Assembly (NCBI GenBank): GCA_963740355.1
Contig: CAVUDW010000002.1
Location: 1,536,001 to 1,600,000 of the forward strand
Direction of reading: 5' to 3'
From: an uncultured Gemmatimonadaceae bacterium
GTDB taxonomy: Bacteria > Gemmatimonadota > Gemmatimonadetes > Gemmatimonadales > Gemmatimonadaceae
DNA: 64,000 bases
The position numbers were made by a program, and so were the translations under genes. The notes beneath the pieces were generated by a model, which did not search any database, was not told the origin of the DNA, and saw only the letters and a list, made by a program, of their open reading frames with translations. The first letter of the stretch is position 1; each line of letters opens with the position of its first letter. Shown here piece by piece: positions 21,518-40,323 of the stretch.

Positions 21518-22888
21518 TTACTCAGGCACCAGCACGGCGATCTCGATCACCGCATCTGGCAACGAATCAGGGACATAGACGCCGACTTCACGCGTCTGCA
21601 GCAGGGCCTGTGCGCAGGGGCCGTCACGCGTGATGGCGAAGTAGCTCATCTCGGCGCGCGGGGCGATCCCGGTCGGCGGCGTCGGCACCGACTCGATCGT
21701 GAGGCCGGCGTAGGCGCGGCGCACCAGTTCGAGGACGAACTTGGCGGCGCAGACCTTGGCGTGCTGCGGGAACTGCGTCGCAGTGAGCAGCGGTCCGAGG
21801 CTCGTGCGGACGCCAACGTACCAGCGTGCCGAGGGCTCGAAGCAACGCGCGTCGGTGATCGCGGCCGTGTGCAGCGTCGATGACGTTTCCGTCAATCGCA
21901 CGACCACAGCGCGCGCGGACACGACGGCGTCGAGGTGCGAGCGGAGGTGGTAGTCCAGCGCGCCGAAGCACCCTTCCAGGTCCTGATGGTCGTACATCGG
22001 CAGGTCGCGCGCCTGCACCGTGAGCGAGAAGGTGCAGAGCGCGCCGGACAGCCGCGACAGTTCCACCCAGAGCCGCTCCGGATGTGCGGTGCGATTCGAC
22101 AGCAGGTGCCGCAGCGGCGCCTCGGCACTGCGAATGGCGTGCAACAACCAGCGGATCGCGACTTCGTTGCCCACGTAGGCCTGCGCCGACGCGGCACCCG
22201 CATCCGCGATCGCCGATGCTAACGCCGCGCTTTTCGCCTCGAGGATCGCGACGGTGTGTTGCAGGAGCGCCACCAGCCGCGGACTGGCGCCGTAGTGCAG
22301 GCAAGGCGGGATATAGTCGCGATCTACGACAAAATGGCCGCCGGCATCACGACGGATGCGCGCCAGTGGCAACGTGATGTCGCCCGCGGACAGTTCGTCA
22401 TCGAGCAGTAGCCGCAGGTGCTTGGTCGTGACCGTGACCGCGAGGGCGTCGGTGCCGGTGGTTTCGTCCACCAGTGTCCGTTCGTCCCGACGGAATCGCG
22501 TGGTCGCCGATGGCAGTGCTGACGCAGGGGCGACGTTTGGCGCATCGTTCAGCCACGGCGCGAGCGCCAGGTGCACCAGGTGCGACTCGCGTGTCGGCGA
22601 AAACCGCGCGGCCAGTGCCGTGGCGAGGGGCAGGGGATCGGGATCGGGCACCTGCAGCGGCGTGCCATCAGGGAATCGGCCGCGTGCATGCACCAGCGAG
22701 AGCGTTCCGCCGCGCAGCGCATCCGTATCCAGCTCCACGCCGGCGACGCCCCACGCGAATGGGATCATGGCATCAATTGCACGTCGCGCCTCGTCCTCGA
22801 GCCATCGACGCTGTGCCTGAAAATGCTGCGGGGCCAACGCCATGCCTTCCTGCCACACCGGCCGTGCCGGCGACAGCGGCTGGCTCAT
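21518..22888 (-). CDS. tssK: T6SS baseplate subunit TssK (copy 1)
   Basis: VWQEGMALAPQHFQAQ, FAWGV, GRFPDGT, YIPPCL, HPERLW, YDHQDL. Confidence 0.93.
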   Translation of the reverse strand: MSQPLSPARPVWQEGMALAPQHFQAQRRWLEDEARRAIDAMIPFAWGVAGVELDTDALRGGTLSLVHARGRFPDGTPLQVPDPDPLPLATALAARFSPTRESHLVHLALAPWLNDAPNVAPASALPSATTRFRRDERTLVDETTGTDALAVTVTTKHLRLLLDDELSAGDITLPLARIRRDAGGHFVVDRDYIPPCLHYGASPRLVALLQHTVAILEAKSAALASAIADAGAASAQAYVGNEVAIRWLLHAIRSAEAPLRHLLSNRTAHPERLWVELSRLSGALCTFSLTVQARDLPMYDHQDLEGCFGALDYHLRSHLDAVVSARAVVVRLTETSSTLHTAAITDARCFEPSARWYVGVRTSLGPLLTATQFPQHAKVCAAKFVLELVRRAYAGLTIESVPTPPTGIAPRAEMSYFAITRDGPCAQALLQTREVGVYVPDSLPDAVIEIAVLVPE

Positions 22889-23142
22889 GGTGCCCACGTT
22901 GCGAACACGCGTCGTGTGCCGGATCTGCAGGCAAAGCGAACGGTCAACATGCGTTCAGGGGGGAGTCGGCGTGGAGGACGAGGCACAGCTGGCGAGCGGC
23001 CCGGTCCGCCGATCCGGAGAGTGCGATTGCGCCAGCGGTTCGTCAAGATAACATACAGCGAAGAGTAGACTGCCTTGAAGGTTACACTGGGACCTCGGCG
23101 GCGCGACCGGTGGTTCGACCGCGTTTTCTCGACACCTGAGCT

Positions 23143-25050
23143 GTGATGATTGAACCCGCTGCACCCTCGCGTTATCGCTTGTCGATGGCCATCGCGCAGC
23201 AGGATGGCGTTCGAACCTATATCGCGGTGGATACCGTTGCGGGTGATTCGGTCCTCGCGCATGTGCTGACCGATACGTCGCCGGCGGCTCGCACGCTGAT
23301 GACGGCGCGTCTGGCGCAACTCACGGGAACCGATGCCGCGCAGGTGCTGGCGACGGTGGTCACTGACCGCGGCTGGGCCGTGATCACGCGTGCCGAGGAC
23401 GGGCTGAACAACTTTGGTGCGTGGTTGCATGCGCGCACGGTTGAGCCCCCCGCGCCATCGGGGACGATGGAGTTCAGCGCGTTTTCGTTCGCACCGCCGG
23501 CGGCACCATCGGCAGCCGCAGCCCCGGTTGCCGCTCCACCGACGGCGCCGCCGCTTGCGATGCCGAGTGTCGCCGCGCCTGTCGACAAGACGGTCGTCAT
23601 TCCACGGCCGCCGAGCACGCCGCCGGTCACGCCGCCGCCGATGGCCGTGCAGCCGGTCGCTCCGCCGCCGATGGCCATGCCGCCAGTTGCCATGCCGCCG
23701 GTTTCGCTGCCATCAGTGCCTCCAACACCGGCCGCGGTGCCAGCGCCTGCACCGGTGATGCCGATGCCGATGCCCGGTGGCGAGGCGATGGTGCTGCCGG
23801 TGGTGCTGTCATCGTCCCCGCCGCCCCCACCACCGAAGGCGCCTGCACCAGGGGAATTCACGCAGATGTTCGCGCCACTCGGCGCGCCGCCATCGAGTGG
23901 CGCGTCGACGCCGTCGCCGGTAGTTCCGATGCCGGTAGCGCCGATGCCGGTTGTCGCGCCGCCAGCACCGGTTGTTTCGCCGGTCGTGTCGACGCCGATT
24001 GCCCCACCAGTGGCGCCGTCGCCGATTGCCGCGGCGCCAGTTGCACCACAGCCAACATTCGACGGGCCGACACAGGCGCCAGCGCAGCAGTCGGTCACTC
24101 GACCCGATCTCGTGTTGCCGCTGCCACCGGCCGACGATGTGCGACCGGCAGCGCCACCACCCACGCCACCACCCGCGCCACCTGCGGCCATTCCGTCGCC
24201 GTCGGTCGTCACACCGGCGCCGCCTGTGACGCCTGCCGCGCCGGCACCCGGTGAATTCACCGCGATGTTCTCGCCGGGCGCCCACTTGAGCGGTCCACCG
24301 CGACCGCACATGTCACCGCCTGCTGCGGCGCCGCCACCAAGCGCGTACACGCCACCGCTCGCGCCACCTGCGTACACGCCACCGCAGGCGCCGCCACCGT
24401 ACACTCCACCGGTCGCGGCACCACCCGCGTACGTGCCACCGGCACCGCCGCCGGATCGTTTCCCGAGTCCGCCGCCTGACACCCGTCCGCCGGCCTTTGG
24501 TGCGGGTGCGGGCGTGAGCGCGTTGCCGCCGCTGCCGCCCCCTGCGACACCGCGTCCGGTGACGGCGCCGCCGATGTCGCCGCCTCCCCTGTCGCCGCCA
24601 TCACTGGCGATGCCGCCAGCCGGTGCCGCAGCGCCTGCACCGGCGCCTGGTGCGAGTGTACCGCCGGTATTGCCGCCGCCGCTGTTCGGTTTGCCTGCGG
24701 CGGGTGGGCCACCTCCGGCGAAGGCGGGGCGCGCTGCCGCCAGTGAGTACACGATGGTGATGCAGGCGAGCGTGAAGCCGATCGATGCGCCGGCACCTGC
24801 GAAGGAGCCAGCCGCCGATGCCACTGCGTCGACTGGTACGCGTCGACTCACGTTACCGGTGATCCTGATGATCAACGCCGTGGTGTTGCTGACGCTCGGA
24901 TTGATTCTCTACTTCGTGTTGCGAAATCCGCCTGCGGCCGTGCCGACGGTGAAAGGCGCACGAGCTTCGGCGGACAGTGCCGCGAAGGGTGCGGTCGACT
25001 CAGCCAAGGTGCAGGGTGATTCTGCCGGAGCGACCGCGCCAAAACCGTAA
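23143..25050 (+). CDS. Pro/Ala-rich membrane-anchored protein with degenerate kinase N-lobe-like N-terminus
   Basis: About 100-aa globular N-terminus (RYRL...TYIAVD...VLAHVL), about 460-aa Pro-rich linker with repeated PGEFTxMF, TM LPVILMINAVVLLTLGLILYFVL. Confidence 0.75.
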   Translation: MMIEPAAPSRYRLSMAIAQQDGVRTYIAVDTVAGDSVLAHVLTDTSPAARTLMTARLAQLTGTDAAQVLATVVTDRGWAVITRAEDGLNNFGAWLHARTVEPPAPSGTMEFSAFSFAPPAAPSAAAAPVAAPPTAPPLAMPSVAAPVDKTVVIPRPPSTPPVTPPPMAVQPVAPPPMAMPPVAMPPVSLPSVPPTPAAVPAPAPVMPMPMPGGEAMVLPVVLSSSPPPPPPKAPAPGEFTQMFAPLGAPPSSGASTPSPVVPMPVAPMPVVAPPAPVVSPVVSTPIAPPVAPSPIAAAPVAPQPTFDGPTQAPAQQSVTRPDLVLPLPPADDVRPAAPPPTPPPAPPAAIPSPSVVTPAPPVTPAAPAPGEFTAMFSPGAHLSGPPRPHMSPPAAAPPPSAYTPPLAPPAYTPPQAPPPYTPPVAAPPAYVPPAPPPDRFPSPPPDTRPPAFGAGAGVSALPPLPPPATPRPVTAPPMSPPPLSPPSLAMPPAGAAAPAPAPGASVPPVLPPPLFGLPAAGGPPPAKAGRAAASEYTMVMQASVKPIDAPAPAKEPAADATASTGTRRLTLPVILMINAVVLLTLGLILYFVLRNPPAAVPTVKGARASADSAAKGAVDSAKVQGDSAGATAPKP

Positions 25051-25065
25051 GTCGGTGATCGCGCG

Positions 25066-26406
25066 TCAGCGCAGTTGGATCACCAGTTCGAGGCGGGCGT
25101 CACCGAGGTCGGCCGGCACGTACACCGCGAGGTTGCGCGCACGTTCGATGGCTTCCCACGCCGGCCCGCTGCGGCGCAGCACGAAGTACTGCTGATCGAG
25201 CTTGATCGGCAGTCCGGCTGGCGGTTGCGCCACGTGCGTCACTTCGACGCCGGCCAGCGCCTGACGAATGAGGGTGTCGACGACGTCGGAGGAGGCGATC
25301 TTGCAGCCGCTGATGACTTTCGTCACGATGTCGATCGGCCGCACCGACGAGGCGACGGCGAGATACCACTGCGGCGCCTGAAGCCACGACTCCTGCTCCA
25401 CGGCCACCGCGTGCACCGAGTGTCGCACCACGCGCAGCGGTCGAGCGACGGCCGTGTCAGGGACGGCGGTGTCGAGCAACTCATGCACTCGCGCGTCGAG
25501 CAGTGTGAAGACCTCGCCGAGCCGCAGATGGTCGTAGGTCGGTAGCGGCGTCGGCATCGCGGAGAAGGTCGTCAGCGCACCGGCGAGGGCGATCATCGCT
25601 TCCCACAACGCCGCCGGGTGTCCACGTCGCACCTCGTACAGGTGCCGCAGCGAGGGTAGGTGGGTGTTGAGCGTGTAGAGCAACCAGAAGCCGGCGACAT
25701 CGGTCACCGAGAAGTCGGCCAGCCCTTGATTGCGTTGCCGCCGCGTGCCGGACACTGCGCTGGCCTTGGCGGCGACGCGTTCGACGAGCCGTCGCGTGAT
25801 GCCCACCAGGTATTCGTTGGCGGCGATGTCGAGCATCGGTGGCACGTATGACAGATCCAGCGTCGTCACGCCAGCCGCATCTCGCGTCAGGCGCATGATG
25901 GGCAAGGTCGTATAGCCATCCAGCGCCTCGCCTTCGAACAGCAGCCTGAGATTGGCGCGTGCCACACTCACTGGGCGTTCGTTGAGCCCCGTCACCTCGT
26001 CGCGCCGCTGCACCTCATCCCCGTGCCACCTGGCGATCGCACGCTCACCGACTTCCGCGACATTACGGCCGCCGGGCCGGTACTCCGGGACGGCGAGATG
26101 CACCACGAGCGAGGACTGATCCGGCGCCCAGGCATCGGTGAAGGCGCGTGGTGCCGGCGACGGGTCGCCGGCGGGGGCGTCGATCACCAGGCCGTCGGGA
26201 AAGCGTGCGGTGACCGCCGTGACGACGACGCTGCCGGCGGCGAGCGCCGCTCGGTCGAGCTCCAGTCGTGCCAGTCCCCACGGGCAAAACGTCAGCGTGG
26301 CGAGCTGGAAGGCCAATGCCTCCTCGTGTGCGCGATCCTGCTGCTGCAGGTGTTGCGGGGCGAGCAGGGTCCCCTTGGACCAGAGCACGGGATGGGCATG
26401 CGGCAT
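25066..26406 (-). CDS. tssK: T6SS baseplate subunit TssK (copy 2)
   Basis: VLWSKGTLLAPQHLQQQDR, PWGL, RFPDG, YVPPML, FWLLYTLN, HPAALW, YDHLRL. Confidence 0.93.
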   Translation of the reverse strand: MPHAHPVLWSKGTLLAPQHLQQQDRAHEEALAFQLATLTFCPWGLARLELDRAALAAGSVVVTAVTARFPDGLVIDAPAGDPSPAPRAFTDAWAPDQSSLVVHLAVPEYRPGGRNVAEVGERAIARWHGDEVQRRDEVTGLNERPVSVARANLRLLFEGEALDGYTTLPIMRLTRDAAGVTTLDLSYVPPMLDIAANEYLVGITRRLVERVAAKASAVSGTRRQRNQGLADFSVTDVAGFWLLYTLNTHLPSLRHLYEVRRGHPAALWEAMIALAGALTTFSAMPTPLPTYDHLRLGEVFTLLDARVHELLDTAVPDTAVARPLRVVRHSVHAVAVEQESWLQAPQWYLAVASSVRPIDIVTKVISGCKIASSDVVDTLIRQALAGVEVTHVAQPPAGLPIKLDQQYFVLRRSGPAWEAIERARNLAVYVPADLGDARLELVIQLR

Positions 26407-26591
26407 TCGACGAACCTATGCGCGTGTGCCGCTCACAGCCAATGCAGGTGGTGGGGTTCGCGCGGTCGTGTCGCGCGTCACCAGCCGCGCGAGTTGGCGC
26501 GACGATCCGGCGTTATCAGCGGCTTTGTGCGTGGCTGGACTGGCCGCCACGCACGCCATCAAACCGTGACCTGATCCCCGCGTGCACTGGC

Positions 26592-26620
26592 TTGACGCCG
26601 CGTGCGCTCCATGCCACCAT
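26592..26620 (+). promoter_or_regulatory. Possible sigma70 promoter for the tssB operon
   Basis: TTGACG-17-CACCAT with extended TG in the divergent tssK/tssB intergenic region. Confidence 0.35.
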
Positions 26621-26766
26621 AGGGCAGCCGAGACGGAATCAGGAGGTCGATCACCGTCTGAAAGTGGGCAGTTCAGACGGTGCCCGGCTCTTTGAAATTG
26701 CGTGTTCGTGCTCCAGCGTTCACTCCCTTCGTGAACGTCTTTTCCATTACTTCCGGAGCGTTGGTC

Positions 26767-27282
26767 ATGGCCGACAGCACGCAAAAGAAACTCGAGCGAG
26801 TGCGCGCTCCCCGCGTGAACATCAGCTACGATGTGGAGGCGGGCGATGCGATCGAGCAGAAGTCACTTCCCTTCGTGATGGGCATCCTGGGCGACTTTAC
26901 CGGTATGCCCGTCGAGCCGCTGGCGCGCGTCAAGGACCGCAAGTTCGTCGAGGTCACCCCCGACAACTTCGACGACGTCCTTGCCAGCATGAAGCCGCAT
27001 CTCGCGTTCTCGGTCGAGAACAAGCTGAGCGAGGATCCGAATGCCGCGAAGCTTGGCATCGACCTCACGTTCAAGAGCCTCGATGATTTCGCTCCGGATG
27101 CCGTTGCACGCCAGGTAAAGCCACTGCGCGAACTGCTCGACCTGCGCACCAAGCTGGCCGACCTTCGCGGCACGTTGCAGACGAACGAGAAGCTCGATGA
27201 GTTGTTGCAGGAGACGTTGCACGACGATGCGAAGCTGGCGGCGCTGAAGGCCGAACTCGGCCTCGATAAGTCGGAGGGTTGA
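26767..27282 (+). CDS. tssB: T6SS sheath small subunit TssB
   Basis: STQKKLERVRAPRVNISYDVE, LPFVMGILGDF, F.SLDDF.P..VA.QV..L..LL. Confidence 0.97.
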   Translation: MADSTQKKLERVRAPRVNISYDVEAGDAIEQKSLPFVMGILGDFTGMPVEPLARVKDRKFVEVTPDNFDDVLASMKPHLAFSVENKLSEDPNAAKLGIDLTFKSLDDFAPDAVARQVKPLRELLDLRTKLADLRGTLQTNEKLDELLQETLHDDAKLAALKAELGLDKSEG

Positions 27283-27286
27283 TCTG

Positions 27287-28777
27287 ATGGCTGACGCACA
27301 GGCGAGCGCAGCTGGCGCCGCACCGCAGGCTGAAGCCCGCGAAGTCGGGTTGCTCGACCAGATCGTGGCCGAAGGCCGCTTCGGTGCCGACACGCAGTCG
27401 CAGACGCGCGGCAAGGACCTCGTCACCCGCTTCGTCTCCGAGGTGCTGGAAGGCGCCGTGACCGTGGGACGCGACACGGAGGCGATGATCAACGCCCGCA
27501 TCGCGCAGCTCGATCACCTGCTGTCGCTGCAGGTGAACGAGATCATGCACAACGCGGAATTCCAGAAGCTCGAGGCGAGCTGGCGCGGCTTGAAGTACCT
27601 GCTCAACCAGACCGAGACGGGCGAGCAGCTGAAGCTGAAGATCTTCAACGTCAGCAAGAAGGAATTGCTGCGCGACCTGCAGCGCGCCCCGGAGTTCGAC
27701 CAGAGCGCGTTGTTCAAGAAGGTGTACGAGGAAGAGTACGGCGTGTTCGGCGGCGCCCCGTTTGGCGCGCTGCTCGGCAACTACGAGTTCAACAAGAGTG
27801 GCCAGGACATCGAGCTGCTGGAAAAGATCTCGAACGTCGCCGCGGCAGCACACGCCCCGTTCATCACGGCGGCGTCGCACGAGATGTTCAACCTCGAGAG
27901 CTACGCGCAGCTGGATCAGCCGCGCGACATGGCGAAGGTGCTCGACAGCACCGAGTACGCGAAGTGGAAGGCGTTCCGCAACACGGACGACTCCCGCTAT
28001 GTCGCGATGGCACTGCCGCGCATGCTGTTGCGTGAACCGTACGGTGCCAAGACCGTGCCGATCGAGGCGTTCAACTACGACGAGCACGTCGACGGGACGG
28101 AGCACGAGTCCTACCTCTGGGGCTCGGCCGCCTGGGCCCTCGGCGCGAAGATCACCGATGCCTTCGCCAAGTACAGCTGGTGCGCGGCCATCCGTGGCGT
28201 GGAAAGCGGCGGCCTCGTGACCGGCCTGCCGGTGCACAATTTCCAGACCGACGCTGGCGAGACGGTGATGAAGTGCCCGACCGAAGTGTCGGTCACCGAT
28301 CGCCGCGAGAAGGAACTCGCGGATCTCGGCTTCGTGCCGCTGGTCCACCAGAAGGGCACCCCGAACGCCGCGTTCTTCAGCGTGCAGAGTGCGCAGAAGG
28401 CGAAGGTGTACGACCAGCCGCAGGCGTCGGCCAACGCACGCATCTCGGCGCAGATTCCCTACATCTTCGCCACGTCCCGCTTCGCGCATTACCTGAAGGT
28501 GATGATGCGCGACAAGATCGGCGGGTTCATGACCGCCTCGGAAGCGACGTCGTTCCTCAATCGCTGGATCTCGCAGTACGTGGTGTCGAACGACGATGCA
28601 TCGTTCGAAACGAAGGCAAAGCGGCCGCTGAAGGAAGCGCGCATCGATGTCGTGGAAGTTGCGGGCAAGCCTGGCGTGTTGCGCGCCGTCGCATTCATGC
28701 GCCCGCACTTCCAGCTCGATGAGCTGTCCATCTCGATGCGCCTCGTTGCTGAGCTGCCGCCGCCGGCTGGCGGCTGA
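27287..28777 (+). CDS. tssC: T6SS sheath large subunit TssC
   Basis: FQKLEASWRGL, LFKKVYEEEYG, AAAAHAPF, SRFAHYLK.MMRDKIG, PHFQL. Confidence 0.98.
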   Translation: MADAQASAAGAAPQAEAREVGLLDQIVAEGRFGADTQSQTRGKDLVTRFVSEVLEGAVTVGRDTEAMINARIAQLDHLLSLQVNEIMHNAEFQKLEASWRGLKYLLNQTETGEQLKLKIFNVSKKELLRDLQRAPEFDQSALFKKVYEEEYGVFGGAPFGALLGNYEFNKSGQDIELLEKISNVAAAAHAPFITAASHEMFNLESYAQLDQPRDMAKVLDSTEYAKWKAFRNTDDSRYVAMALPRMLLREPYGAKTVPIEAFNYDEHVDGTEHESYLWGSAAWALGAKITDAFAKYSWCAAIRGVESGGLVTGLPVHNFQTDAGETVMKCPTEVSVTDRREKELADLGFVPLVHQKGTPNAAFFSVQSAQKAKVYDQPQASANARISAQIPYIFATSRFAHYLKVMMRDKIGGFMTASEATSFLNRWISQYVVSNDDASFETKAKRPLKEARIDVVEVAGKPGVLRAVAFMRPHFQLDELSISMRLVAELPPPAGG

Positions 28778-28857
28778 TGCGGGCGCAGTATTGCTGGGCA
28801 GTGCCGGGATTTCGAGGTTCACGCGGTCTACAATTTCATTCGTAAGGAGTCGAGCAG

Positions 28858-29355
28858 ATGCTGTTCCTGACTTTTGACAAGGCGGAAGGCCTCGTCGGCA
28901 GTACCACCGATGCCGGGCAGTCCAAGACGGGCGCGTCCGAAATCACGAGTTTCCAGTTCGGCGCCGGCACTGGCGTGAGCAAGGAATCGGGTCGCCTCAA
29001 GGCGAGCGTCGTCTCGCTGTCGGATGTGACGCTGACCAAGGCCTTCGATTCCATGTCGCCACCACTGTTTTCGGCGTGCAGCCGCGGCGCCTCGATTCCG
29101 AAGGCGTCGGTCATCTTCTGCAAGCCGAACGCCGACGCCAAGGCGGGCGCGATTCCTTACCTCACCGTCCTGATGGAGAACGCGGTGATCTCCGGCGTAT
29201 CCTGGAGCAGCGGCGGTGACATGCCGTCAGAGAGCATCTCGCTGACGTACGAAAAGATCACGTTCACGTACGAGGCCGCGCCGGCCGTCGGGAAGGAAGG
29301 TCAGGGCAAGCCGGTCGTCACCGGTTGGGATGCGATGCAGAACGTCAAGATCTGA
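28858..29355 (+). CDS. hcp: T6SS tube protein Hcp (TssD)
   Basis: TK.FD.MSP.LF..C..G, ESISLTYEKI...Y, GWD; AAGGAG RBS; follows tssC. Confidence 0.92.
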   Translation: MLFLTFDKAEGLVGSTTDAGQSKTGASEITSFQFGAGTGVSKESGRLKASVVSLSDVTLTKAFDSMSPPLFSACSRGASIPKASVIFCKPNADAKAGAIPYLTVLMENAVISGVSWSSGGDMPSESISLTYEKITFTYEAAPAVGKEGQGKPVVTGWDAMQNVKI

Positions 29356-29358
29356 TCA

Positions 29359-30075
29359 GTGCCGACCGCCATTGATGCGTTCCGGGCTGGACGCCTGTCG
29401 GAGGCGGTCGAGGCGTTGGGCATCGAACTGCGACACAATCCGTCCGATGCCCGACGTCGCACGTTTCTGTTCGAACTCCTCTGCTTCGCCGGCGACTATG
29501 AACGTGCCGTGAAGCAGCTCGACGTGCTCGGTTCGGCTTCGAAGGAAGCCGAACTGGGCGCGCTGTTGTACAAGGGCGCAATCCGTGCCCAGCGTGAACG
29601 CGAATCACTCTTCGCCGATCACGCCTTTCCGCTCGATCCCGCACCAGCCGTGCGCGGGACGCTCAACGGCAAGCCATTCGAGTCGCTCGAGGACGCGGAT
29701 CCGCGCATCGGTGCGCGGATCGAGTGCTTCGCCGCCGGCAAGTACATGTGGTTGCCGCTCGCGCATGTCGCGCAGATCACCATGGCCGCGCCGGCCTCGG
29801 TACGTGACACGCTCTGGCCAACAGTCCACGTGCGCACTGGCCCGGGATTCAAGGGGATGGAGCTGGGGCAGGTCCTGCTGCCGGTCATCGCTGCGGGCAC
29901 CACCAGCCAGGCCGATGAGCAGGTCCGTCTCGGGCGGGTCACCGATTGGGCCACGCTGCCGGATGGTGCGGAGGCGCCCGTCGGTCTCAAGTACTGGCTG
30001 GTCGACGGTGAAGAGTTCTCGCTGCTCGAATTGCGCGACCTCGTCATCGAGCGGCCGCCTGTCGTCGAGGCCTAG
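29359..30075 (+). CDS. tagJ: T6SS accessory protein TagJ (ImpE/SciE)
   Basis: R.FLFELLCFAGDYERA.KQL, F..L.DAD.R.G, Y.W.P, RD.LW, RLGR.TDW. Confidence 0.93.
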   Translation: MPTAIDAFRAGRLSEAVEALGIELRHNPSDARRRTFLFELLCFAGDYERAVKQLDVLGSASKEAELGALLYKGAIRAQRERESLFADHAFPLDPAPAVRGTLNGKPFESLEDADPRIGARIECFAAGKYMWLPLAHVAQITMAAPASVRDTLWPTVHVRTGPGFKGMELGQVLLPVIAAGTTSQADEQVRLGRVTDWATLPDGAEAPVGLKYWLVDGEEFSLLELRDLVIERPPVVEA

Positions 30076-30203
30076 TGCGGGCCGCCCCTCGCACGCACAC
30101 GAGTTGATCACGCTGACCTGACGCGCGCGCACGGCGCCGCCAATCCGTCGCGTGGTCTGCCGGGCTTCCGGCGTCGCGTTTCTCTTCCTCGCTTCTGATC
30201 GCA

Positions 30204-31985
30204 ATGCCTGCACGCGCCGAAATTCTCGATCCGCTCCTCGCCCCGATTCCTGGCGACAATCCGTCCGGTCGATCGGTACGCGATGAACCTGTGTACGAGA
30301 AGATCCGGGAAGCGCGCCGCGAGGAAGACGACGCTGATCAGGGCGCCTGGAAGCGCGCACGCAAGGTTGCCGATCACGCGCTGGTGATCAAACTCGTGTC
30401 CGAGGTGCTCACCTCGACATCGAAGGACCTGCAACTCGCGTCCTGGTGGACCGAGTCGATGCTGAAGCGTGAGGGCGTCGCCGGACTGCGCGACGGCGTG
30501 GCGCTGATGCGCGGGCTGGTCGAAGGATTCTGGGACACCGTCTATCCGGAACTCGAAGACGGCGACGCCTCGCTGCGCGCGGGGCCACTCGACTTCATCG
30601 GCATCAAGCTGGTGGACGCATTGAATACGGCACCGCTCAATGCCGCGCGCCACAGCTTCCGTCAGTACGACGCTGCGTTTCTTGCGGGGACCGAGGAGGA
30701 AGGGCGCGGCGACGACGACCGACGCAAGTTGCGCGAAACGCTGGCCGAGAAGTCTGAACCGCTGATCGAGCAGGTGCTGGCGTCTGCCGATGCCACGCCG
30801 AAAGCATGGTACGTGACGCTGGCTGCCGACATTCGCGAGATCATCGCTGATCTCTATGAGCTCGACACTTTCGGGAACGAGCGATTCGGCGAAGAAGCGC
30901 CAAGCTTCCGGCGCCTGCTCGATGCCCTCGAGGTCGCGCAGCGATCGGCGGATGCGTTGCTCGCACGTCGACGCGCACAGGAGCCTGACGGCGACGACGG
31001 ATCTGTCGGCGACACTGCCGATGCCGCAGGTGGCCAGACTGATGCCAGCAGCCTGGTGACGGCCACTGTTGGCGCAGTCCCGACCAGCGACAGCGACGCC
31101 GGCCTGCGAGTCGTGATTGCTGCGCGCTTCCTGCGCCGCGCGCACCCTACCGATCCAACGCCGTACGCCTTGCTCCGCGCACTGCGCTGGCAGGCCCTCA
31201 GGGCTGGTGGTCGCGGCGAGGATACGCCGGCACCGGCCCTGATGCACGCCCCTCCCACGGCGGAACGCGCCCGCCTGAAAGGGCTCATGCTCGAGCAGCG
31301 ACATGAAGACCTGCTCGATGGGGTCGAGGAGTTGCTGGGTGCCACCAGCGGCGGCGCGTGGCTCGACGCGCAACGTTGGGCGCTCGACGCCGCCACCGCA
31401 CTCGGCGATGACTATGCACCCGTTGCACACGTGATGCGCACGTCATTGCGCCAGCTGCTGGCTGACTTTCCCCGGCTCCCGCAGGCGATGCTGCTCGATG
31501 ACACACCGGTCGCGAACGCCGAAACGATTGCGTGGCTGGATCGGGCCGGGCTGCTGAGCGCGGCACGTGGCGCTGACGCGCCGCCACTCGAAGGGATGCC
31601 CACGGTCCCGCATCGCCCGATGCTGGAGCGCGCACGGGCCGAAGCGGCGGGCGGTCGTCTGGATCGTGGCGTCGCGCTGCTGATGTCCGATGTCGTGCGT
31701 GAACGCAGCGAGCGCGCGCGCTTCCTGCGCCGACTCGAACTGGTGACGATGCTGGTCGATGCGGCCCGGGCTGAGATTGCGATGCCCATCGTCGAGGAGC
31801 TGCTCGAACAGCTGGACACGCACAAGCTGGAAGCGTGGGAAGACGGTGGTGTCGTCGCGCAGGCGCTGGTGCTGGCCTGTCGGGCGATCGATGCCACCGA
31901 AGGCGACCAGCGTCGTCGTGGTGAACTGTACTTGCGGATCTGTCGCCTCGACCCGATCGCCGCGCTCGCACTCGGCACGGCCTGA
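30204..31985 (+). CDS. tssA: T6SS TssA (ImpA_N domain)
   Basis: LLAPIPGDNPSG, Y..IREAR, SKDLQLA.W..E, FWDTVYP, WLD.QR, DDTP.AN.ET..W. Confidence 0.93.
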   Translation: MPARAEILDPLLAPIPGDNPSGRSVRDEPVYEKIREARREEDDADQGAWKRARKVADHALVIKLVSEVLTSTSKDLQLASWWTESMLKREGVAGLRDGVALMRGLVEGFWDTVYPELEDGDASLRAGPLDFIGIKLVDALNTAPLNAARHSFRQYDAAFLAGTEEEGRGDDDRRKLRETLAEKSEPLIEQVLASADATPKAWYVTLAADIREIIADLYELDTFGNERFGEEAPSFRRLLDALEVAQRSADALLARRRAQEPDGDDGSVGDTADAAGGQTDASSLVTATVGAVPTSDSDAGLRVVIAARFLRRAHPTDPTPYALLRALRWQALRAGGRGEDTPAPALMHAPPTAERARLKGLMLEQRHEDLLDGVEELLGATSGGAWLDAQRWALDAATALGDDYAPVAHVMRTSLRQLLADFPRLPQAMLLDDTPVANAETIAWLDRAGLLSAARGADAPPLEGMPTVPHRPMLERARAEAAGGRLDRGVALLMSDVVRERSERARFLRRLELVTMLVDAARAEIAMPIVEELLEQLDTHKLEAWEDGGVVAQALVLACRAIDATEGDQRRRGELYLRICRLDPIAALALGTA

Positions 31986-31987
31986 CG

Positions 31988-32560
31988 ATGGCACGGGACG
32001 AGCGTGGGAGGTCCGGCGATGGTGAGTGGAGCAGCACTGGCGCAATGCCGATGCAGCGGTCGGATACCGTGGCGCGCCCGGTGCAGTCGTCACTCCTCGA
32101 TCGGCTGACTGACGACGCCCCGGGCGTGAGCCGCGAGGCACTCCCGACACACACCGAAAGCATGGCGGCGCTGCGGAGCGCGGTTCGGCACGACCTGGAG
32201 TGGTTGCTCAACACGCGGCGCGACCTGGTGACGATCGACGACACCATGCCGGAAGCACGACGCTCGCTGCTGCGCTATGGTGTGCCTGACTTCAGCTCGA
32301 TGTCGCGCGACGGCAGTGATACGCTCCAGCGACTGGTGCGCGAGGTCGAGGAATGTGTGGCGAACTTCGAGCCACGGCTGGCGAATGTTCGCGTGCGCGC
32401 GCACGCGGATCCCGGTATGGGTGGGCGACCGGAGTTGCGATTCTCCATCGAGGGCATGTTGCGCGTCGATCCGGCACCGGAACGCGTCGTGTTCGACACG
32501 GTGCTCGAGACGGCACGCGGGGAATACCTCGTGCGTGCAGGACGCCCCGACGATGCGTGA
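31988..32560 (+). CDS. tssE: T6SS baseplate TssE (gp25-like)
   Basis: SLLDRLTD, DLEWLLNTR, YGVPD, FEPRL; start may lie at a downstream Met. Confidence 0.95.
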   Translation: MARDERGRSGDGEWSSTGAMPMQRSDTVARPVQSSLLDRLTDDAPGVSREALPTHTESMAALRSAVRHDLEWLLNTRRDLVTIDDTMPEARRSLLRYGVPDFSSMSRDGSDTLQRLVREVEECVANFEPRLANVRVRAHADPGMGGRPELRFSIEGMLRVDPAPERVVFDTVLETARGEYLVRAGRPDDA

Positions 32561-34406
32561 CGAACTGCTTTGGTATTACGAGCGCGAACTGGGCTACCTC
32601 CGTCGGCTCGGTGCGGAGTACGCGCAGCGTTATCCGAAGGTCGCGGGCCGCTTGCAGCTCGAGGCCACCAAGTGCGAGGATCCACACGTCGAGCGTCTGC
32701 TCGAGGGTTTCGCGTTTCTGGCGGCGCGAATTCACCTCAAGCTGGACGACGACGTCTCGCAGGTGGCCGAGTCGTTGCTGGCCATCGTGGCCCCGCAGCT
32801 GGTGCGTCCAGTGCCTTCGATGTCGATCGCGGAGTTCGTCGCCGACCCAGAACGCGCATCGATGCCCGAGGGGGTCGCCGTGCCTCGCGGCTCGCTGCTC
32901 CGAACACGATCTGTCGGTGGCATGCGCTGCACGTTCCGTACGGCGGCACCGGTGCACCTCTGGCCGGTGAGCGTTGCCGACGCGCGTTGGGTCACGCCCG
33001 ATGCGCTCGTGCCGCCGGTCCGAGCCACCGACGCGGTCGGTGCGTTGCGGATCGAGTTGCGCGCCTTCCCCGGCGTGTCGCTCTCGTCGCTGGCGATGGA
33101 GTCGCTGCGCATTCATCTGCACGGTGACGGTTCTGTCGCTTCGACGCTGCACGAAGTGCTGTGCCGCGATACCACCGCCATCCTGGTGCGGTCGCTTGAC
33201 GATGGCGACCGGAATCAGGCGGTGCGCATCGAAGTGTCGCCTCGCATGCTCAGCGCCGGCGGCTTCGGTGCCGATGAACGAATCCTGGAGGGCGGCGCGC
33301 CGTCGTTGGCCCCATACGGTCTGCTGCAGGAATACATGGCCTTGCCGGCGGCGTTCCGCTCCGTCGACCTCGCGATTGGCAATGCCTTGCGCGCGTCGAA
33401 TGCGCGGGCCGCGGCGGAAGTCGTGATCCTGGTGGGGGCCTTCGAGCGAGGCGATCGTCGCGCGGTGCTGGCGGCCGGCGTGACGCGCGAAACGATCCGG
33501 CTCGGCTGCACCCCCGTGGTCAACCTTTACGACCACGTGGCGGAGCCGATCCTGCTCACGCACCGTCGCGACGAGTATCCGCTCGTGCCGGACGCGCAGC
33601 AGCGCCTGGCGACGGAGGTGTACGCCGTGACCAATGTGGTCGGTGTGCCGGCCGGTGGTGGTGAGGCGACGCGCTACGAACCGCTCTACGGGTTGAAGCA
33701 CGATGTGCCGGCAGGCGAGCAGCCGGTATTCTGGGTCGCACGCCGGCATCCGGCACCGGAGCGTGGCGCGCGTGCAAGCGACCTGTCGCTGGCGTTCGTG
33801 GATCGCGGTGGACGCACCTTCCAGCCGCGTCATGACGTGGTCACGGCACGAACGCTCTGCTTCAATGGCGACCTGCCGTCGCGGTTGCCGGTCGGCGATG
33901 CACGCGGCGATTTCGAGCTGGTGGGCGGCGGACCCCTGACGCGCATTGCCGCGCTGTTACGGCCGACCACGGCGGTGCATCCGCGCCTTGGTTCGGCGTT
34001 GGCGTGGCGCATGGTGTCACAACTGTCGCTCAATCATCTCTCGCTCGGTGATGGCCCGGACGCGCTGCGCGAACTGCTCCGGTTGCACGATCACGGCGAG
34101 TCGCCAGACATCGAGCGACAGGTGCAGGGCGTCAGTGATGTGAGCAGCGAAGCCGTCCACGCGCGCATTCCTGGACTGTCGCGCGGCGGTGGGTTGGCCC
34201 TGGCACGCGGGCGCCGGATCTCCATCACACTCGATGAGGATCACTTCGCCGGTGACGGCGCCTGGATCTTTGCCAGCGTGCTGGATCGCTTCTTCTCGTT
34301 GTACGCATCGCTCAACAGCTTCACGCAGCTGACGGTGAATACCCGTCAACGACGCCGTCCGCTCGGTGAGTGGTCACCGCGCGCCGGGAGCCGCGCCCTC
34401 GGATGA
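32553..34406 (+). CDS. tssF: T6SS baseplate TssF
   Basis: LLWYYERELGYLR, YPKVAGRL, DPHVERLLEGFAFL, LGCTPVVNL, YASLNSFTQL, W.PRAG. Confidence 0.97.
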   Translation: MRDELLWYYERELGYLRRLGAEYAQRYPKVAGRLQLEATKCEDPHVERLLEGFAFLAARIHLKLDDDVSQVAESLLAIVAPQLVRPVPSMSIAEFVADPERASMPEGVAVPRGSLLRTRSVGGMRCTFRTAAPVHLWPVSVADARWVTPDALVPPVRATDAVGALRIELRAFPGVSLSSLAMESLRIHLHGDGSVASTLHEVLCRDTTAILVRSLDDGDRNQAVRIEVSPRMLSAGGFGADERILEGGAPSLAPYGLLQEYMALPAAFRSVDLAIGNALRASNARAAAEVVILVGAFERGDRRAVLAAGVTRETIRLGCTPVVNLYDHVAEPILLTHRRDEYPLVPDAQQRLATEVYAVTNVVGVPAGGGEATRYEPLYGLKHDVPAGEQPVFWVARRHPAPERGARASDLSLAFVDRGGRTFQPRHDVVTARTLCFNGDLPSRLPVGDARGDFELVGGGPLTRIAALLRPTTAVHPRLGSALAWRMVSQLSLNHLSLGDGPDALRELLRLHDHGESPDIERQVQGVSDVSSEAVHARIPGLSRGGGLALARGRRISITLDEDHFAGDGAWIFASVLDRFFSLYASLNSFTQLTVNTRQRRRPLGEWSPRAGSRALG

Positions 34407-35497
34407 ACAGCGAGTTGCTCGAACAGGACGCGCTCGACGCGCTCATCTCCCGCATCGAGAGTGCGCCTGGCGCGTTCGAGTTTGCGCAGATCGTTCGCCT
34501 GCTGGCACGGATCGAGCCGGGGATGTCGGCAGTGGGTGAGTTTGGCGACCCGGCACTCGAGGCGGTGCGTTTCGGCGTCAATCCCTCGTTGGCGTTCCCT
34601 CCGGGCGATGTGCAGCGCGTGAACGTGACGCCGGGTGGGCCCGGTGTCACCGATGAAAGCGAACTATCCACGCCGCGTACGCGCGCGTCGCGCGCTGGGA
34701 TGCGTGGCGCGCGCGGCCAGCCGTTCATGGAAGTGAACTTTCTCGGCCTGGTCGGACCCGCCGGTGTGCTACCAAAGAGCTACACCCAGTTCGTCGCAGA
34801 ACGCGTGGCGCTCAAGGACACGGCGCTCCGTGATTTTCTCGACCTGTTCCATCACCGGCTGATTTCGCTCTTCTATCGCGCGTGGCGGACGACGCGGCCG
34901 CATGTGGCAGCCGGTGAAGGTGCGGAGGATGACGCGCTGTCGCAGCGCTTGCGCAGCGTCGTGGGGCTCGGCACGCCGGCGGTGGCTGCTGCGCTTCCGG
35001 TCGATGATTCCGTCTTGTTGCGTCATGCGGCGCTGCTTGCACCACATGCACGATCGGCCAGCGCGCTGAAACAGTTGCTCTCCGCCTATCTGGAAGTGCC
35101 CTGCGAGGTCGAGGAGTTCGTGCCGGCGTGGTATCGATTGGCGCCCGGCACACAGTGCGCGCTCGGCGAGGACGATGACACCACGGTGCTCGGCTTCGGG
35201 AGCGTGGTTGGTGATGCCGTGTTGGACCATGGCGCACGGGCGCGTGTCCGCATCGGGCCCATGTCGCGTGCGATGTTCGATGGCCTGTTGCCCGGTACGA
35301 AGGGGCATGAGGCATTGAAGTCGATCGTGCGTTTCGTCGCTGGCGATGCCGTCGAAGTTGAAGCCTGCCTGATTCTCGAGCGTGATGCCGTTCCCGCCAC
35401 AGTCCTCGGTACCGGGAGCGGTCAGCTCGGGTGGGGGACATGGCTTCGTACACGTCGGCCGGCGCGTGACCCCGACGATACCGCGTTCCTGTTCTGA
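34370..35497 (+). CDS. tssG: T6SS baseplate TssG
   Basis: FEFAQ.VRLL, SLAFP, FLGL.GP.G.LP, DFLDLFHHRL.SLFYRAW, LGWGTWL; start GTG 34370 (overlapping tssF) or ATG 34403. Confidence 0.95.
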   Translation: MVTARREPRPRMNSELLEQDALDALISRIESAPGAFEFAQIVRLLARIEPGMSAVGEFGDPALEAVRFGVNPSLAFPPGDVQRVNVTPGGPGVTDESELSTPRTRASRAGMRGARGQPFMEVNFLGLVGPAGVLPKSYTQFVAERVALKDTALRDFLDLFHHRLISLFYRAWRTTRPHVAAGEGAEDDALSQRLRSVVGLGTPAVAAALPVDDSVLLRHAALLAPHARSASALKQLLSAYLEVPCEVEEFVPAWYRLAPGTQCALGEDDDTTVLGFGSVVGDAVLDHGARARVRIGPMSRAMFDGLLPGTKGHEALKSIVRFVAGDAVEVEACLILERDAVPATVLGTGSGQLGWGTWLRTRRPARDPDDTAFLF

Positions 35498-35591
35498 TCC
35501 TGCATTCGGATACTGCGTGCTGTAGCCCCGTTCGGGAGCCTTGCCGGTCCCGTCATGCTGGTCCAGTCCTTCTGCCCTGAGCCCCAGACCG

Positions 35592-38267: not shown

Positions 38268-38289
38268 AACACACCCGGGAATCCCGAGC

Positions 38290-40323
38290 ATGCCCAAGTA
38301 CACCCAGAGTACGCGCGACTTTCAGCTCACGACACCGTTGGGAACGGACGTGCTGCTCTGCGCGAGCTGGAGCTGTGCTGAAGCGGTGTCGTCATTGTTC
38401 GACCTGCGCATCGTGGCGCTCAGTGAGCGCCGCGACATCACGCCGAAGGAGTTGCTGCTGAAGACCGTGTCGCTGCTCTGCAAGACCGGGAGCGGCGAGC
38501 GGCACTTCACAGGCATCGTCCGACATGTGGAACGGTTGTCGGATGTGGCGGGGCCGTTCGCGGAGTACGTGTTGCATGTCGTGCCGCCCGCCTGGTTGCT
38601 CACCCAGGGCTCCGGCTACAAGGTCTATCAGGACAAGGACCTGCAGGCGATCCTGCGCGACGTGCTGGCGGGTGTGACGGTCGACTGGCAGTTGCAGGGC
38701 TCGTTCGATCCGGTGCCGAGTCGCACACGATTCGACGAGTCGCGCTGGAGCTTCGCGACCCGACTGCTCGAACGTGACGGCATCTGGTTCACGTTCACCC
38801 ACACCGCATCGGCGTGCACGATGGTGTTGGCGAATTCGATGGCGTCCGCCAGTGTGCGTCATGGGCTGACCGAGTTGCGCGACACCGGCTGGGATGGCAA
38901 CGCCGAGTTGCTTGGCTTGACCACGCACCAGCAGCCGTTCATCAAGAAGGTCGTCGTCGGCACGTCGCAGCCTGGACTCTTCGGGCGGGAAAATCGTGAG
39001 GAAGCGCAAGCACCCGCGATGCAATCCAGCCCCGGGAACTGGCCGCTGGATCCCTCCGCGTTCCCGGCTGAATTCGAGACGCAGTTGTACGAGTTCGTCG
39101 CAGGGCAGGGACGCGATGGCGCGGACAAGGGTGGCGGCGCGACGGCGTCGGAGTTGGGGAAGCTGGTCACCGACCTGCGACATCAGGCACTCTTGCACGC
39201 GCAGGCAAGCACGGCGACCTCTTCCCGTGCCGTGGGGTCGAGCCGCGCGACGGGCTTGGCGGCCGGCGCCAAGGTCGGCATCCATCGCACCGGCGAGTCA
39301 GCGGCCAACGGGCAGTACTTCATAACGTCGGTGGAGCATGCCGGTTCCAACGGCAGCTATCTCGGCGGTGACGACGCGGCTCCGTCGTATCACAACGAGT
39401 TCACCTGTGTGCCGCACAGCGTGGTGTATCGCCCGCCGCGCCAGACGCAGTGGCCGGTTGTGCAGGGGGTGCATGTCGCGACGGTCGTCGGCCCTTCCGG
39501 CGAGGAGATCTTCACCGACAAGCTGGGTCGGGTGCGCGTCGTCTTCGAATGGAACCGCGACGCGTCGGCGCCGAACGGACCGGGCGACGCGTGTTGGGTC
39601 CGCGTGGCGCAACTCGTCTCGGGGGCCGGCTGGGGCGCCTTCTTCCTGCCGCGTGTTGGGCACCAGGTGCTGGTGAGCTTCCTTGGTGGCGATCCCGATG
39701 CGCCGGTGGTGGTTGGCAGCCTGTACAATAATACCAACATGCCACAAATAAAGCTCCCGGATGACAAGACGCAGAGCGCGGTGCGCTCGCGATCGTCACC
39801 GCAGGGGAGCGCGGAGAACTACAACGAACTCCGATTCGAGGACAAGAAGGGCGAGGAGGAAGTCACCTTCCAGGCGGAGCGTGACTTCATCGCGCTGATC
39901 AAGCACGACTCGACGCTGACGGTGAAGGAAGGCAACCAGAGCATCACGATCCAGAAGGGCGACCAGACGCTGACGGTCGAGAAGGGCAAGTACTCGATCA
40001 CCGTCGAGAAGGATGTGGCGACCGAGGTGAAGTCCGGCCACTGGCTGACGACCGTCAAGGCCGGCGATTCGACGACGAAGGTGTCGGCGGGGAAGTCCCT
40101 GCTCGAGGTGGCGAAGGACATCACGATCGAGAGCAAGGGGGGGAAAGTCTCCATCACGGCGCCGATGGCGATTGAGCTCAAGTGTGGTCCCAGTACGATC
40201 AAGATCAGCCCGAGCGGTGTCGAAATTTCCGGTCCCACGTTCAAGGCCAGCGCCAATGCGACTGCTGAAGTGTCGGGCAGCGCAATGCTGACCCTGAAGG
40301 GCGGCATTGTCATGATCAACTGA
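38290..40323 (+). CDS. vgrG: T6SS spike VgrG (TssI) with no effector extension
   Basis: ES...F..RLLE.DGIW, G...A.VVGP.GEEI..D..GRV, WVRV.Q..G.GWG..F.PR.G..V, NELRFEDKKG.E, beta-helix tail ending GGIVMIN. Confidence 0.97.
   Translation: MPKYTQSTRDFQLTTPLGTDVLLCASWSCAEAVSSLFDLRIVALSERRDITPKELLLKTVSLLCKTGSGERHFTGIVRHVERLSDVAGPFAEYVLHVVPPAWLLTQGSGYKVYQDKDLQAILRDVLAGVTVDWQLQGSFDPVPSRTRFDESRWSFATRLLERDGIWFTFTHTASACTMVLANSMASASVRHGLTELRDTGWDGNAELLGLTTHQQPFIKKVVVGTSQPGLFGRENREEAQAPAMQSSPGNWPLDPSAFPAEFETQLYEFVAGQGRDGADKGGGATASELGKLVTDLRHQALLHAQASTATSSRAVGSSRATGLAAGAKVGIHRTGESAANGQYFITSVEHAGSNGSYLGGDDAAPSYHNEFTCVPHSVVYRPPRQTQWPVVQGVHVATVVGPSGEEIFTDKLGRVRVVFEWNRDASAPNGPGDACWVRVAQLVSGAGWGAFFLPRVGHQVLVSFLGGDPDAPVVVGSLYNNTNMPQIKLPDDKTQSAVRSRSSPQGSAENYNELRFEDKKGEEEVTFQAERDFIALIKHDSTLTVKEGNQSITIQKGDQTLTVEKGKYSITVEKDVATEVKSGHWLTTVKAGDSTTKVSAGKSLLEVAKDITIESKGGKVSITAPMAIELKCGPSTIKISPSGVEISGPTFKASANATAEVSGSAMLTLKGGIVMIN

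Follow-up and report, generated by a model that had tools for sequence, protein, structure and literature searches.

How the building of a type VI secretion system (T6SS) is controlled is understood almost exclusively from work on Proteobacteria, in which Fha, PpkA and PppA hold the central roles. The subject of the present account is a gene, here called X (23146..25050, + strand), found in a 64,000-nucleotide stretch of contig CAVUDW010000002.1 from an uncultured Gemmatimonadaceae bacterium; the stretch is referred to as the window and belongs to a genome of 5.45 Mb with a completeness of 94.5%. X encodes a putative tail-anchored T6SS accessory protein of 634-635 amino acids (aa) that is built of three parts, namely a cytoplasmic domain modelled as the remnant of a protein-kinase N-lobe, a disordered Pro/Ala-rich linker of about 460 aa that carries a repeated PGEFTxMF motif, and a C-terminal transmembrane (TM) anchor. 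The gene lies within a complete T6SS cluster and is a member of a real, large and so far unnamed gene family. X offers a testable handle on membrane nucleation in an Fha-less T6SS lineage of two abundant soil phyla, and it raises the questions of what an isolated kinase N-lobe can do and what reads a strict, repeated Thr motif.

One described system that resembles X in plan is Fha (TagH), whose gene fha1 in the H1 cluster of Pseudomonas aeruginosa is positioned next to the tssK-tssL-tssM block. According to a preprint on Acidovorax citrulli (bioRxiv 10.1101/2023.12.21.572528), Fha begins with an FHA domain (residues 1-101), continues as an intrinsically disordered region (102-561) and ends in a C-terminal domain that attaches to the membrane by an amphipathic helix; membrane complex, baseplate and sheath all need this helix in order to form, and Fha condensates recruit T6SS parts. 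Fha/TagH and X are both products of T6SS-cluster genes near tssK-tssL-tssM, with a signalling-type N-terminal domain of about 100 aa, some 460 aa of disorder and a C-terminal membrane element, and both are linked to a Hanks kinase. Unlike Fha/TagH, X contains no FHA domain, its N-terminal domain is a predicted kinase N-lobe remnant and its linker contains a strict repeated motif. For its membrane element X has a true TM helix and Fha an amphipathic helix, and there is no sequence homology between the two.

Other relatives in form are found amongst mycobacterial and T6SS signalling proteins. The pseudokinase domain of Rv3910 (MviN/MurJ) from Mycobacterium tuberculosis, a partner of FhaA, is the best Foldseek match to X (3otv_D, 3uqc_A, 3oun_B). 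Rv3910 is regulated by PknB and, like X, represents a membrane-tethered dead kinase-like module, its Thr-phosphorylation circuit being judged here by the titles of the PDB entries. Whereas Rv3910 contains a complete two-lobe kinase-homology domain (246-257 residues) and has FhaA as its FHA partner, X has about 90 residues corresponding to the N-lobe and aD, and no FHA partner is known for it. GarA/OdhI contain an N-terminal phospho-acceptor motif, ETTSVF, of which GarA has a single copy that binds its own FHA domain; this motif is similar to that of X in its acidic residue at -2, its Thr and its hydrophobic +2/+3 positions ending in Phe, but X has no FHA domain. TssL (DotU) shares with X a cytoplasmic N-terminal part, a single C-terminal TM helix and a place in the same gene block, whilst X is without a DotU domain (PF09850 matches the neighbour at 20767-21462) and TssL is without the motif array. 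In Agrobacterium, TssL is reported to be a Thr-phosphorylated kinase target that recruits Fha (PMC3953482).

Architecture of protein X

The N-terminal domain (aa 9-99; 23167..23439, + strand) is modelled as a degenerate protein-kinase N-lobe made of b1-b2-b3, aC, b4-b5 and aD. An alignment of the first 112 residues of 18 family members, which was the input for AlphaFold2 (AF2) and for the profile searches, gave a model with a predicted local distance difference test score (pLDDT) of 79 and a predicted TM-score (pTM) of 0.66. Its elements follow one another as b1-b2-b3, a helix, b4-b5 and a second helix, as in a kinase N-lobe with aD behind it, and the model has the five-stranded sheet with an aC helix by which the N-lobe fold of the Hanks/ePK family (PF00069) is defined. 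When the model was compared with the PDB by Foldseek, all of the listed rows (ranks 1-49) were protein kinases or kinase-homology domains aligned over about 80 residues, led by the Rv3910 pseudokinase and Staphylococcus aureus PknB, with a best E value of 6e-3 and none at or below 0.001. VIA-align, which is independent of Foldseek and covered 48,161 representative chains, also gave kinases in 50 of the 50 listed rows (Z 6.9-8.7), including PknB (1mru_A, Z 8.5, root-mean-square deviation 2.5 over 83 residues), the T6SS kinase PpkA (5hnv_A, Z 7.1) and the pseudokinase domains of JAK2 and TYK2. A Z score of 7-8 is middling by the tool's own warning, and the weight rests on the uniformity of the list.

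A comparison of profiles leads to the same register. The family alignment was paired by hhalign with an alignment of kinase domains from T6SS-linked kinases over 95 columns (2-97 on 2-104; E 0.0012, probability 20%), in N-lobe register, with RYRL placed over RYRI and the stretch IAQQDGVRTYI opposite the Gly loop LGSGAMGQVW; the cluster kinase of the window also aligns with X in the register RYRL...A.D...G..V..H.L. In the model X shares its fold with the N-lobes of PpkA and PknB but, unlike these enzymes, has no Gly-rich loop (GxGxxG) and no match to the Pkinase model, contains His40, the His of VLAHVL, in the place of the catalytic b3 Lys (VAIK; Lys39 of kinases), and lacks the C-lobe with its HRD and DFG motifs, the fold ending near aa 100 where the Pro/Ala-rich linker follows. 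The His is kept in 153 of 153 family members, and a number of other N-lobe residues are near-invariant amongst the same 153 (Trp94 in 151, Ala28 in 150, Val37 and Leu60 in 148 each, Thr82 in 145 and Tyr11 in 143).

Sequence-based recognition of the domain is weaker. A PDB sequence-profile search gave a best E value of 0.18, with kinases in 21 of 29 rows; the Pfam Pkinase model did not match any of 18 family members at E 10, and a scan of the whole genome with PF00069 did not list the place of X. The Atlas neighbours of X are mostly hypothetical proteins, with kinase families in 5 of 30, and none of 596 candidates was a longer, fused version of the domain, a negative of little weight. As a structural statement, the models indicate that the domain is a kinase N-lobe remnant unable to be an enzyme. 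The first-pass annotation had described an N-lobe without Gly loop, catalytic Lys and C-lobe in this position, and AF2, Foldseek, VIA-align, hhalign and the universal His are all in agreement with it.

The linker contains two full copies of the motif, both on the + strand as are all features of X. Copy 1, PGEFTQMF (aa 236-243; 23848..23871), is invariant in four of four close homologues, and copy 2, PGEFTAMF (aa 369-376; 24247..24270), is retained in three of the four. Directly after the N-lobe there is also a degenerate first motif, GTMEFSAFSF (23461..23490), with Ser in place of Thr, at a position where relatives have a canonical GEFTxLF. The last copy is a juxtamembrane variant, SEYTMVM (aa 534-540; 24742..24762), found 31 aa upstream of the TM helix and belonging to the family form S-[ED]-[FY]-T-[RM]-[IV]-[IL], which lies a median of 44 aa ahead of the helix in the family. 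A six-frame scan of the 5.45-Mb genome for GEFT.[MLIF]F gave three matches; since two of only three fall inside X, the motif is far beyond chance. A word-indexed search with X found three close relatives only, which share the N-terminal domain, GEFTQMF, SEYTM[IV]M and the TM helix.

Across the TM-bearing representatives the family logo reads P-G-E-F-T-[RQ]-[LMI]-F-[G]-A, and when the central position is left free, 435 of 438 copies have Thr there, two have Ser and one has Glu. At least one copy is present in 76 of the 82 TM-bearing representatives among the 150 listed members, with a mode of 3-4 copies. Five Thr-centred islands had been pointed out in the first-pass annotation, and the quoted strings do occur in the translation of X where it placed them (DKTVVI at aa 148, GEFTQMF at aa 237, nt 23851, and GEFTAMF at aa 370, nt 24250). 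The two GEFTxMF copies and SEYTMVM are conserved, whereas DKTVVI and the YTPP repeats are not. DKTVVI is not a family feature, since the four-sequence alignment has a gap there, and the repeats (three YTPP and one YVPP, aa 402-433; 24346..24441) are lineage-specific, with Y-x-P-P runs found mainly within the window's own genus and a distinct S-Y-P-P-P run in locus L024.

The TM anchor had likewise been proposed as a single helix, and one hydrophobic helix is indeed present at the C-terminus, LPVILMINAVVLLTLGLILYFVL (aa 571-593; 24853..24921), with conserved Pro, Asn and Tyr-Phe in the family alignment. The family pattern of this region is basic-basic-x-[IL]-P...L-[IL]..[IL]-N....L-Y-F, and the tail that follows has a family median of 4 aa and is 42 aa long in the window protein.

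The ORF (open reading frame) from which X was called mechanically starts at a GTG at 23143 and runs to 25050 on the + strand, giving 635 aa with 26% Pro and 19% Ala; ATG 23146 is the more probable start because homologues begin MTEPA.... An antisense ORF of 552 aa (23217-24875) overlaps X, and GC content by codon position does not tell both apart, a measure that is without power for the strand of X because Pro and Ala codons dominate. The N-terminal domain, the motifs and the TM helix are all conserved in the + frame across two phyla; on this ground the idea that X is a shadow-ORF artefact was rejected, and since conservation follows the + frame it is the antisense ORF that is a high-GC shadow. 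The X protein matched no family in Pfam (E 0.01) or NCBIfam, including no FHA and no DotU domain, and a promoter and terminator scan of 22800-26800 gave no signal exceeding shuffles.

The X family and its T6SS lineage

An exhaustive profile search with the N-terminal alignment, clustered at 50% identity, places 991 clusters in the X family at E <= 0.001, of which 448 remain when the threshold is tightened to E <= 1e-10. Its hosts are almost exclusively Gemmatimonadota and Acidobacteriota. In nearly all of the 150 listed members the domain is at or near the N-terminus, the latest start being residue 73, and 82 of the 150 contain a C-terminal TM helix. Their source annotation is 'hypothetical protein' or nameless, and Pfam and NCBIfam have no model for them. 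Word matching with region 120-560 of L032, a relative with nine repeats, gave three proteins only. The window protein contains all three family modules, the N-lobe remnant, the PGEFTxMF array and the TM helix, together with the linkage to a two-tssK T6SS, and this family definition is new to genome annotation and to T6SS classifiers. The earlier suggestion that X is an undescribed membrane-anchored T6SS component is upheld by the missing Pfam and NCBIfam models, the conserved TM helix and the T6SS linkage across genomes.

No paper was found with the motif strings of X, none relevant to T6SS in Gemmatimonadota or Acidobacteriota, and none that joined at least three of the terms T6SS, Acidobacteria, two tssK/tssK paralog, pseudokinase and threonine phosphorylation pathway. 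A term search of a 2026 review of T6SS accessory factors (PMC13584744) found no mention of pseudokinase, Acidobacteri, Gemmatimonad, proline-rich or disordered.

X lies between two tssK genes, as had been claimed, and both flanking genes encode full-length TssK proteins (PF05936, E 5.6e-119 and 5.1e-126; TIGR03353). The gene is divergent from tssK1 (21518..22897, - strand), which heads tssK1-tssL-tssM and from which it is separated by a gap of 245 bp, and convergent with tssK2 (25066..26406, - strand) across a gap of 15 bp. Both TssK1 and TssK2 are full length when compared with the solved Escherichia coli TssK (5m30), with shoulder and head domains in each. The two paralogues are about 34% identical, and the pair is a fixed trait of this T6SS lineage in Gemmatimonadota and Acidobacteriota; a literature search found no paper on the two-TssK trait. 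In a quick maximum-likelihood tree of 58 TssK sequences, for which the careful search is unfinished, the TssK1-type proteins of both phyla form one clade apart from the TssK2-type, with a support of 100 and a stem of 1.07. Such a well-supported clade on a long stem indicates that the tssK duplication is old and, as it spans both phyla, that the cluster with two tssK genes and X is one T6SS lineage common to the two.

Linkage was followed in a sample of 401 genomes of the window's phylum, the tallies of which include G157, G057, G182 and G097 as negatives only. The N-terminal domain was matched in 35 genomes and TssK (PF05936) in 50, of which 40 contain two full copies, and X is present in 39 of these 40. 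Of the 35 domain places, 20 were fetched. In 16 of them X is flanked by one tssK gene of each type, TssK1 and TssK2, in one (L015) it is beside TssK1 only, and in two (L025, L028) it is away from T6SS genes; L030 was rejected as a false match, being a 1167-aa repeat protein without motifs or TM helix. The single-sequence query had overlooked ten two-tssK genomes, nine of which have a motif-bearing ORF between the tssK genes, on the opposite strand and in a gap of 1.4-3 kb; the tenth (G309) has a contig break there. Match coordinates in 11 further genomes place X between two tssK genes or adjoining one. Four weak domain matches in genomes without two tssK genes (G138, G320, G372 and G351, of which G138 only was inspected) are uncounted. 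G116, in which no TssK was found, has a distant, acidic relative of X (L028), and no X was present in the loci fetched for single-tssK systems of another family, a distant T6SS type (G011, G020).

The first-pass annotation had called for a search for GEFTxMF-repeat proteins and their neighbourhoods, and the motifs proved to be conserved and linked to T6SS. When one genome from each of 185,579 species was scanned blind for DNA encoding PGEFTR[ML]F, at least 124 stretches were obtained, and 80 loci were fetched on 76 distinct contigs, 59 of which are from Acidobacteriota, 12 from Gemmatimonadota and five from others by their record titles. The acidobacterial contigs are mostly from Bryobacterales and Solibacteraceae, with others from Acidobacteriaceae and Terriglobia. 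An ORF with at least two motifs is present on 73 of the 76 contigs, matching the N-lobe profile in 57 of the 73, and T6SS core genes occur in the same locus in 61 of the 73. The three remaining loci, two with single-copy ORFs and one without an ORF, look like chance hits. Amongst the 12 multi-motif loci without T6SS neighbours, seven are on short contigs of less than 10 kb. In L118 and L113 X has housekeeping neighbours, and since these genomes contain TssK and exactly one N-lobe match, X is single-copy there and merely unlinked. In G244 the two tssK genes are adjacent and X is on another contig.

A variant is found in Acidobacteriaceae, in which X contains the motifs, the terminal variant and the TM helix and is without the N-lobe, and in which two adjacent tssK genes lie about 15 kb from X. 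Because this form exists, the motif array and the anchor are taken as the core of the family and the N-lobe as an accessory. In the Acidobacteriaceae loci L048, L065, L075, L097 and L111 the N-lobe-less X begins MTED...DPLSATGMFLNAF and lies between a methyltransferase gene and tssL, and this cluster further includes genes for a PP2C phosphatase and a DUF4280 (PAAR-like) protein. In two further loci, L019 (G257) and L022 (G136), the X frame loses the family sequence midway and the C-terminal motifs and TM helix are missing from it, which may reflect a frameshift, a misassembly or pseudogene formation; both were excluded from the alignments. Overall, the X family is a fixed part of a T6SS lineage that is marked by two ancient TssK proteins, TagJ, ClpV and a linked Hanks kinase, with no canonical Fha.

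A possible Fha-like scaffold and its rivals

It is suggested, with a probability of roughly 0.45, that X may act as an Fha-like, membrane-tethered multivalent scaffold for T6SS assembly, with the motif Thr as the target of the cluster kinase. The suggestion is drawn by analogy, because X has the plan, nearly the same dimensions and the cluster block of Fha in a lineage without Fha. In such a scheme X would take the role that Fha has in proteobacterial T6SSs, beside TssL/TssM, and would gather cytoplasmic T6SS parts via its repeated motifs. Each motif would most likely form an amphipathic F-x-x-[LM]-F helix of one to two turns, and the cluster kinase would phosphorylate the invariant Thr, which as a rule has Glu at -2 and Phe at +3. 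Binding may then be switched by phosphorylation, with a PP2C phosphatase encoded in the clusters of some relatives, whilst the N-lobe remnant might be a docking or dimerisation module for the kinase. The choice of Thr rather than Ser, the acidic residue at -2 and Phe at +3 fit both a Hanks-kinase acceptor and a phospho-Thr read-out, as known from the motifs of mycobacterial kinases and the specificity of FHA domains. In an AF2 model of a short full-length relative (L027, the first row of its alignment) two motifs are drawn as one-turn helices with low confidence, and the model shows no confident docking of a motif on the N-lobe, the linker having a pLDDT of about 45-70.

The candidate writer is a Hanks Ser/Thr kinase (41332..42972, - strand; Pfam/NCBIfam) that consists of a kinase domain at 42103-42972, a TM helix and a C-terminal domain. 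Of the 21 loci with at least 3.5 kb of flank beyond tssM, 15 have a Hanks kinase there within 5 kb, in comparison with 43 Pkinase matches in the 5.45 Mb of the window's genome, or about one per 130 kb; in the window's genus the kinase is at the opposite end of the cluster. G244 has no kinase in its T6SS cluster, and the orthologous kinase is found about 5 kb from the unlinked X. A complex prediction with the kinase domain, the N-lobe, a 35-mer motif peptide and ATP scored 0.00, had no controls and counts neither way.

No FHA domain was found within the window, and the four FHA matches of its genome lie elsewhere. TIGR03354, the model for the canonical T6SS Fha, was above its cut-off in 0 of the 401 genomes, where 277 weaker matches cover the generic FHA part only, and in the window's own genome the model had no match of any strength. 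The FHA protein nearest to the cluster, 686 aa in length, is encoded 7.3 kb past the window end (G000:C2:1607257-1609317; L172:7257-9317) and joins a cytoplasmic-type FHA domain to a C-terminal SLT lytic transglycosylase domain. It was rejected as a reader of the motif, as only 3 of 14 strong orthologues are in T6SS-positive genomes and none is in G350, which is T6SS-positive and of the same genus. The FHA-based read-out that had been proposed at first thus finds no support in the cluster, in the distribution of the nearest FHA protein or in TIGR03354. As a separate observation, an FHA-trypsin protein adjoins the kinase in the T6SS cluster of G249, an arrangement that is not general.

A number of points weigh against the scaffold proposal. 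The likeness of X to Fha is analogy and not homology, and amongst the FHA candidates examined there is no phospho-Thr reader whose distribution follows that of X. Nor is the kinase a constant neighbour, being absent from 6 of the 21 loci and from the surroundings of the unlinked X in L113 and L118. One whole genus has Ala at -2 of the motif (PGAFTQMF), so an acidic kinase determinant is not universal, and the Thr could be conserved for structure, for instance in helix capping. Moreover, the N-lobe is dispensable in Acidobacteriaceae, since the form without it keeps the motifs and the TM helix, and the statistics for kinase homology are modest (Foldseek 6e-3, hhalign 20%, PDB profile 0.18 or worse).

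A rival reading does without phosphorylation. In it the array may tether a baseplate part constitutively and multivalently, the likeliest candidate being a TssK paralogue, with TssK trimers held at the membrane complex and the Thr having a structural role. The co-occurrence of X with the tssK duplication in 39 of 40 genomes is consistent with such docking, as are the position of X between two tssK genes in 26 directly seen loci (the window and 25 fetched) and the long-stemmed TssK1 clade with both paralogues full length. Gene order by itself is weak evidence, however, and in G244 and in Acidobacteriaceae the tssK genes adjoin each other whilst X is elsewhere in the genome or the cluster. The motif was also considered as a mimic of another T6SS protein and this was rejected, as the other proteins of the cluster contain no [FYW][TS]x[MLIV][FILMVW] site in motif-like flanks; nothing in the T6SS proteins of the window therefore points to mimicry, and constitutive docking is judged somewhat unlikely.

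A bolder version of the scaffold, which is regarded as unlikely, is a phospho-switch that works without FHA, in which the N-lobe would dock the kinase, the kinase would go on to phosphorylate many F-T-x-x-F copies on one membrane-tethered chain, and the phospho-state of this array would decide whether a baseplate part such as the extra TssK is captured at TssL/TssM, possibly in a condensate-like manner. If true, the task of Fha would have been solved a second time by independent evolution, and X would be the first case of an isolated kinase N-lobe used as a free-standing module of a bacterial secretion machine.

The N-lobe may alternatively be the working part of X. PknB-type kinases form back-to-back dimers via their N-lobes, and the remnant could pair in this way with the N-lobe of the cluster kinase and switch it on or off, the linker being a spacer to the membrane. 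The kinase N-lobe fold, several invariant surface and core residues and the linked kinase would all be accommodated. The strict conservation and copy number of the motifs are left unexplained, however, and the Acidobacteriaceae form retains motifs, TM helix and kinase without any N-lobe, which makes a pseudokinase regulator quite improbable.

A HemK/PrmC-like methyltransferase of about 490 aa, with the domain order DUF7059-MTS-DUF7782, is encoded near X in a number of loci (e.g. L065:6314-7783, L118:6554-8026, L023:12159-13676), and no paper mentioning DUF7059 or DUF7782 was found. The enzyme may modify X in some lineages, and the wider proposal would be that the motifs are its recognition or modification sites. 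Of the 52 motif-scan loci with enough flank, 17 have the enzyme no more than 3 kb from X; it is listed at no more than 50 bp from X in 12 motif-scan loci, and is adjacent even where X is unlinked from T6SS (L118, L083). Its closest named families, all below cut-off, are protein Gln methyltransferases, its C-terminal domain has a weak PqqD-like match, and a Gln directly follows the motif in 67 of 153 copies from loci with the enzyme as compared with 99 of 391 from loci without it, an enrichment that is confounded by phylogeny. Against this, the invariant motif residues are Thr, Phe and Phe only, the enzyme is within 3 kb of X in just 3 of 26 Gemmatimonadota loci, and it was not found in the window's genome at its 94.5% completeness, so that a general role as methyltransferase substrate is very improbable. 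Least credible of all is a general envelope or cytoskeletal protein with an incidental T6SS linkage, as might be read from the single X among housekeeping genes in some Bryobacterales and the weak relative in G116, since those Bryobacterales genomes still have a T6SS with X in single copy and X is essentially confined to T6SS-positive genomes in the 401-genome sample.

Other genes of the cluster and the window

The remainder of the T6SS cluster is arranged on both sides of X. Downstream of tssK1 on the - strand are tssL/DotU (20767-21462; PF09850) and tssM (17147-20938; Pfam), and beyond tssK2 a long block on the + strand (26680..40323; family models) contains tssB, tssC, hcp, tagJ/impE, tssA, tssE, tssF, tssG, clpV and vgrG, with a DUF6931 gene listed after vgrG on the same strand. 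TssJ (PF12790) was not found in the genome, given its 94.5% completeness. In several Gemmatimonadota clusters a CsgG-like lipoprotein adjoins the T6SS-linked kinase (L016:1099-1917, L023:1016-1735, L171:4420-5172), and it is possibly a candidate for an outer-membrane substitute given that no TssJ was found.

The cluster kinase in the window is followed by an 807-aa Big_2/TolB-like protein (together 41332-45402), and the combination of the kinase and a nearby Big_2 protein recurs in G249 (L171). Just past the T6SS cluster an ORF at 47450-48226 encodes a YopT-type cysteine protease (Peptidase_C58) and is surrounded by ORFs without a family (45663-47286, 48341-50644); this is a possible effector region. 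On the other side, between an amidohydrolase gene and tssM, there are four ORFs of 271, 448, 326 and 237 aa (13349-17140) with no Pfam or NCBIfam family, two of which look secreted or outer-membrane by eye.

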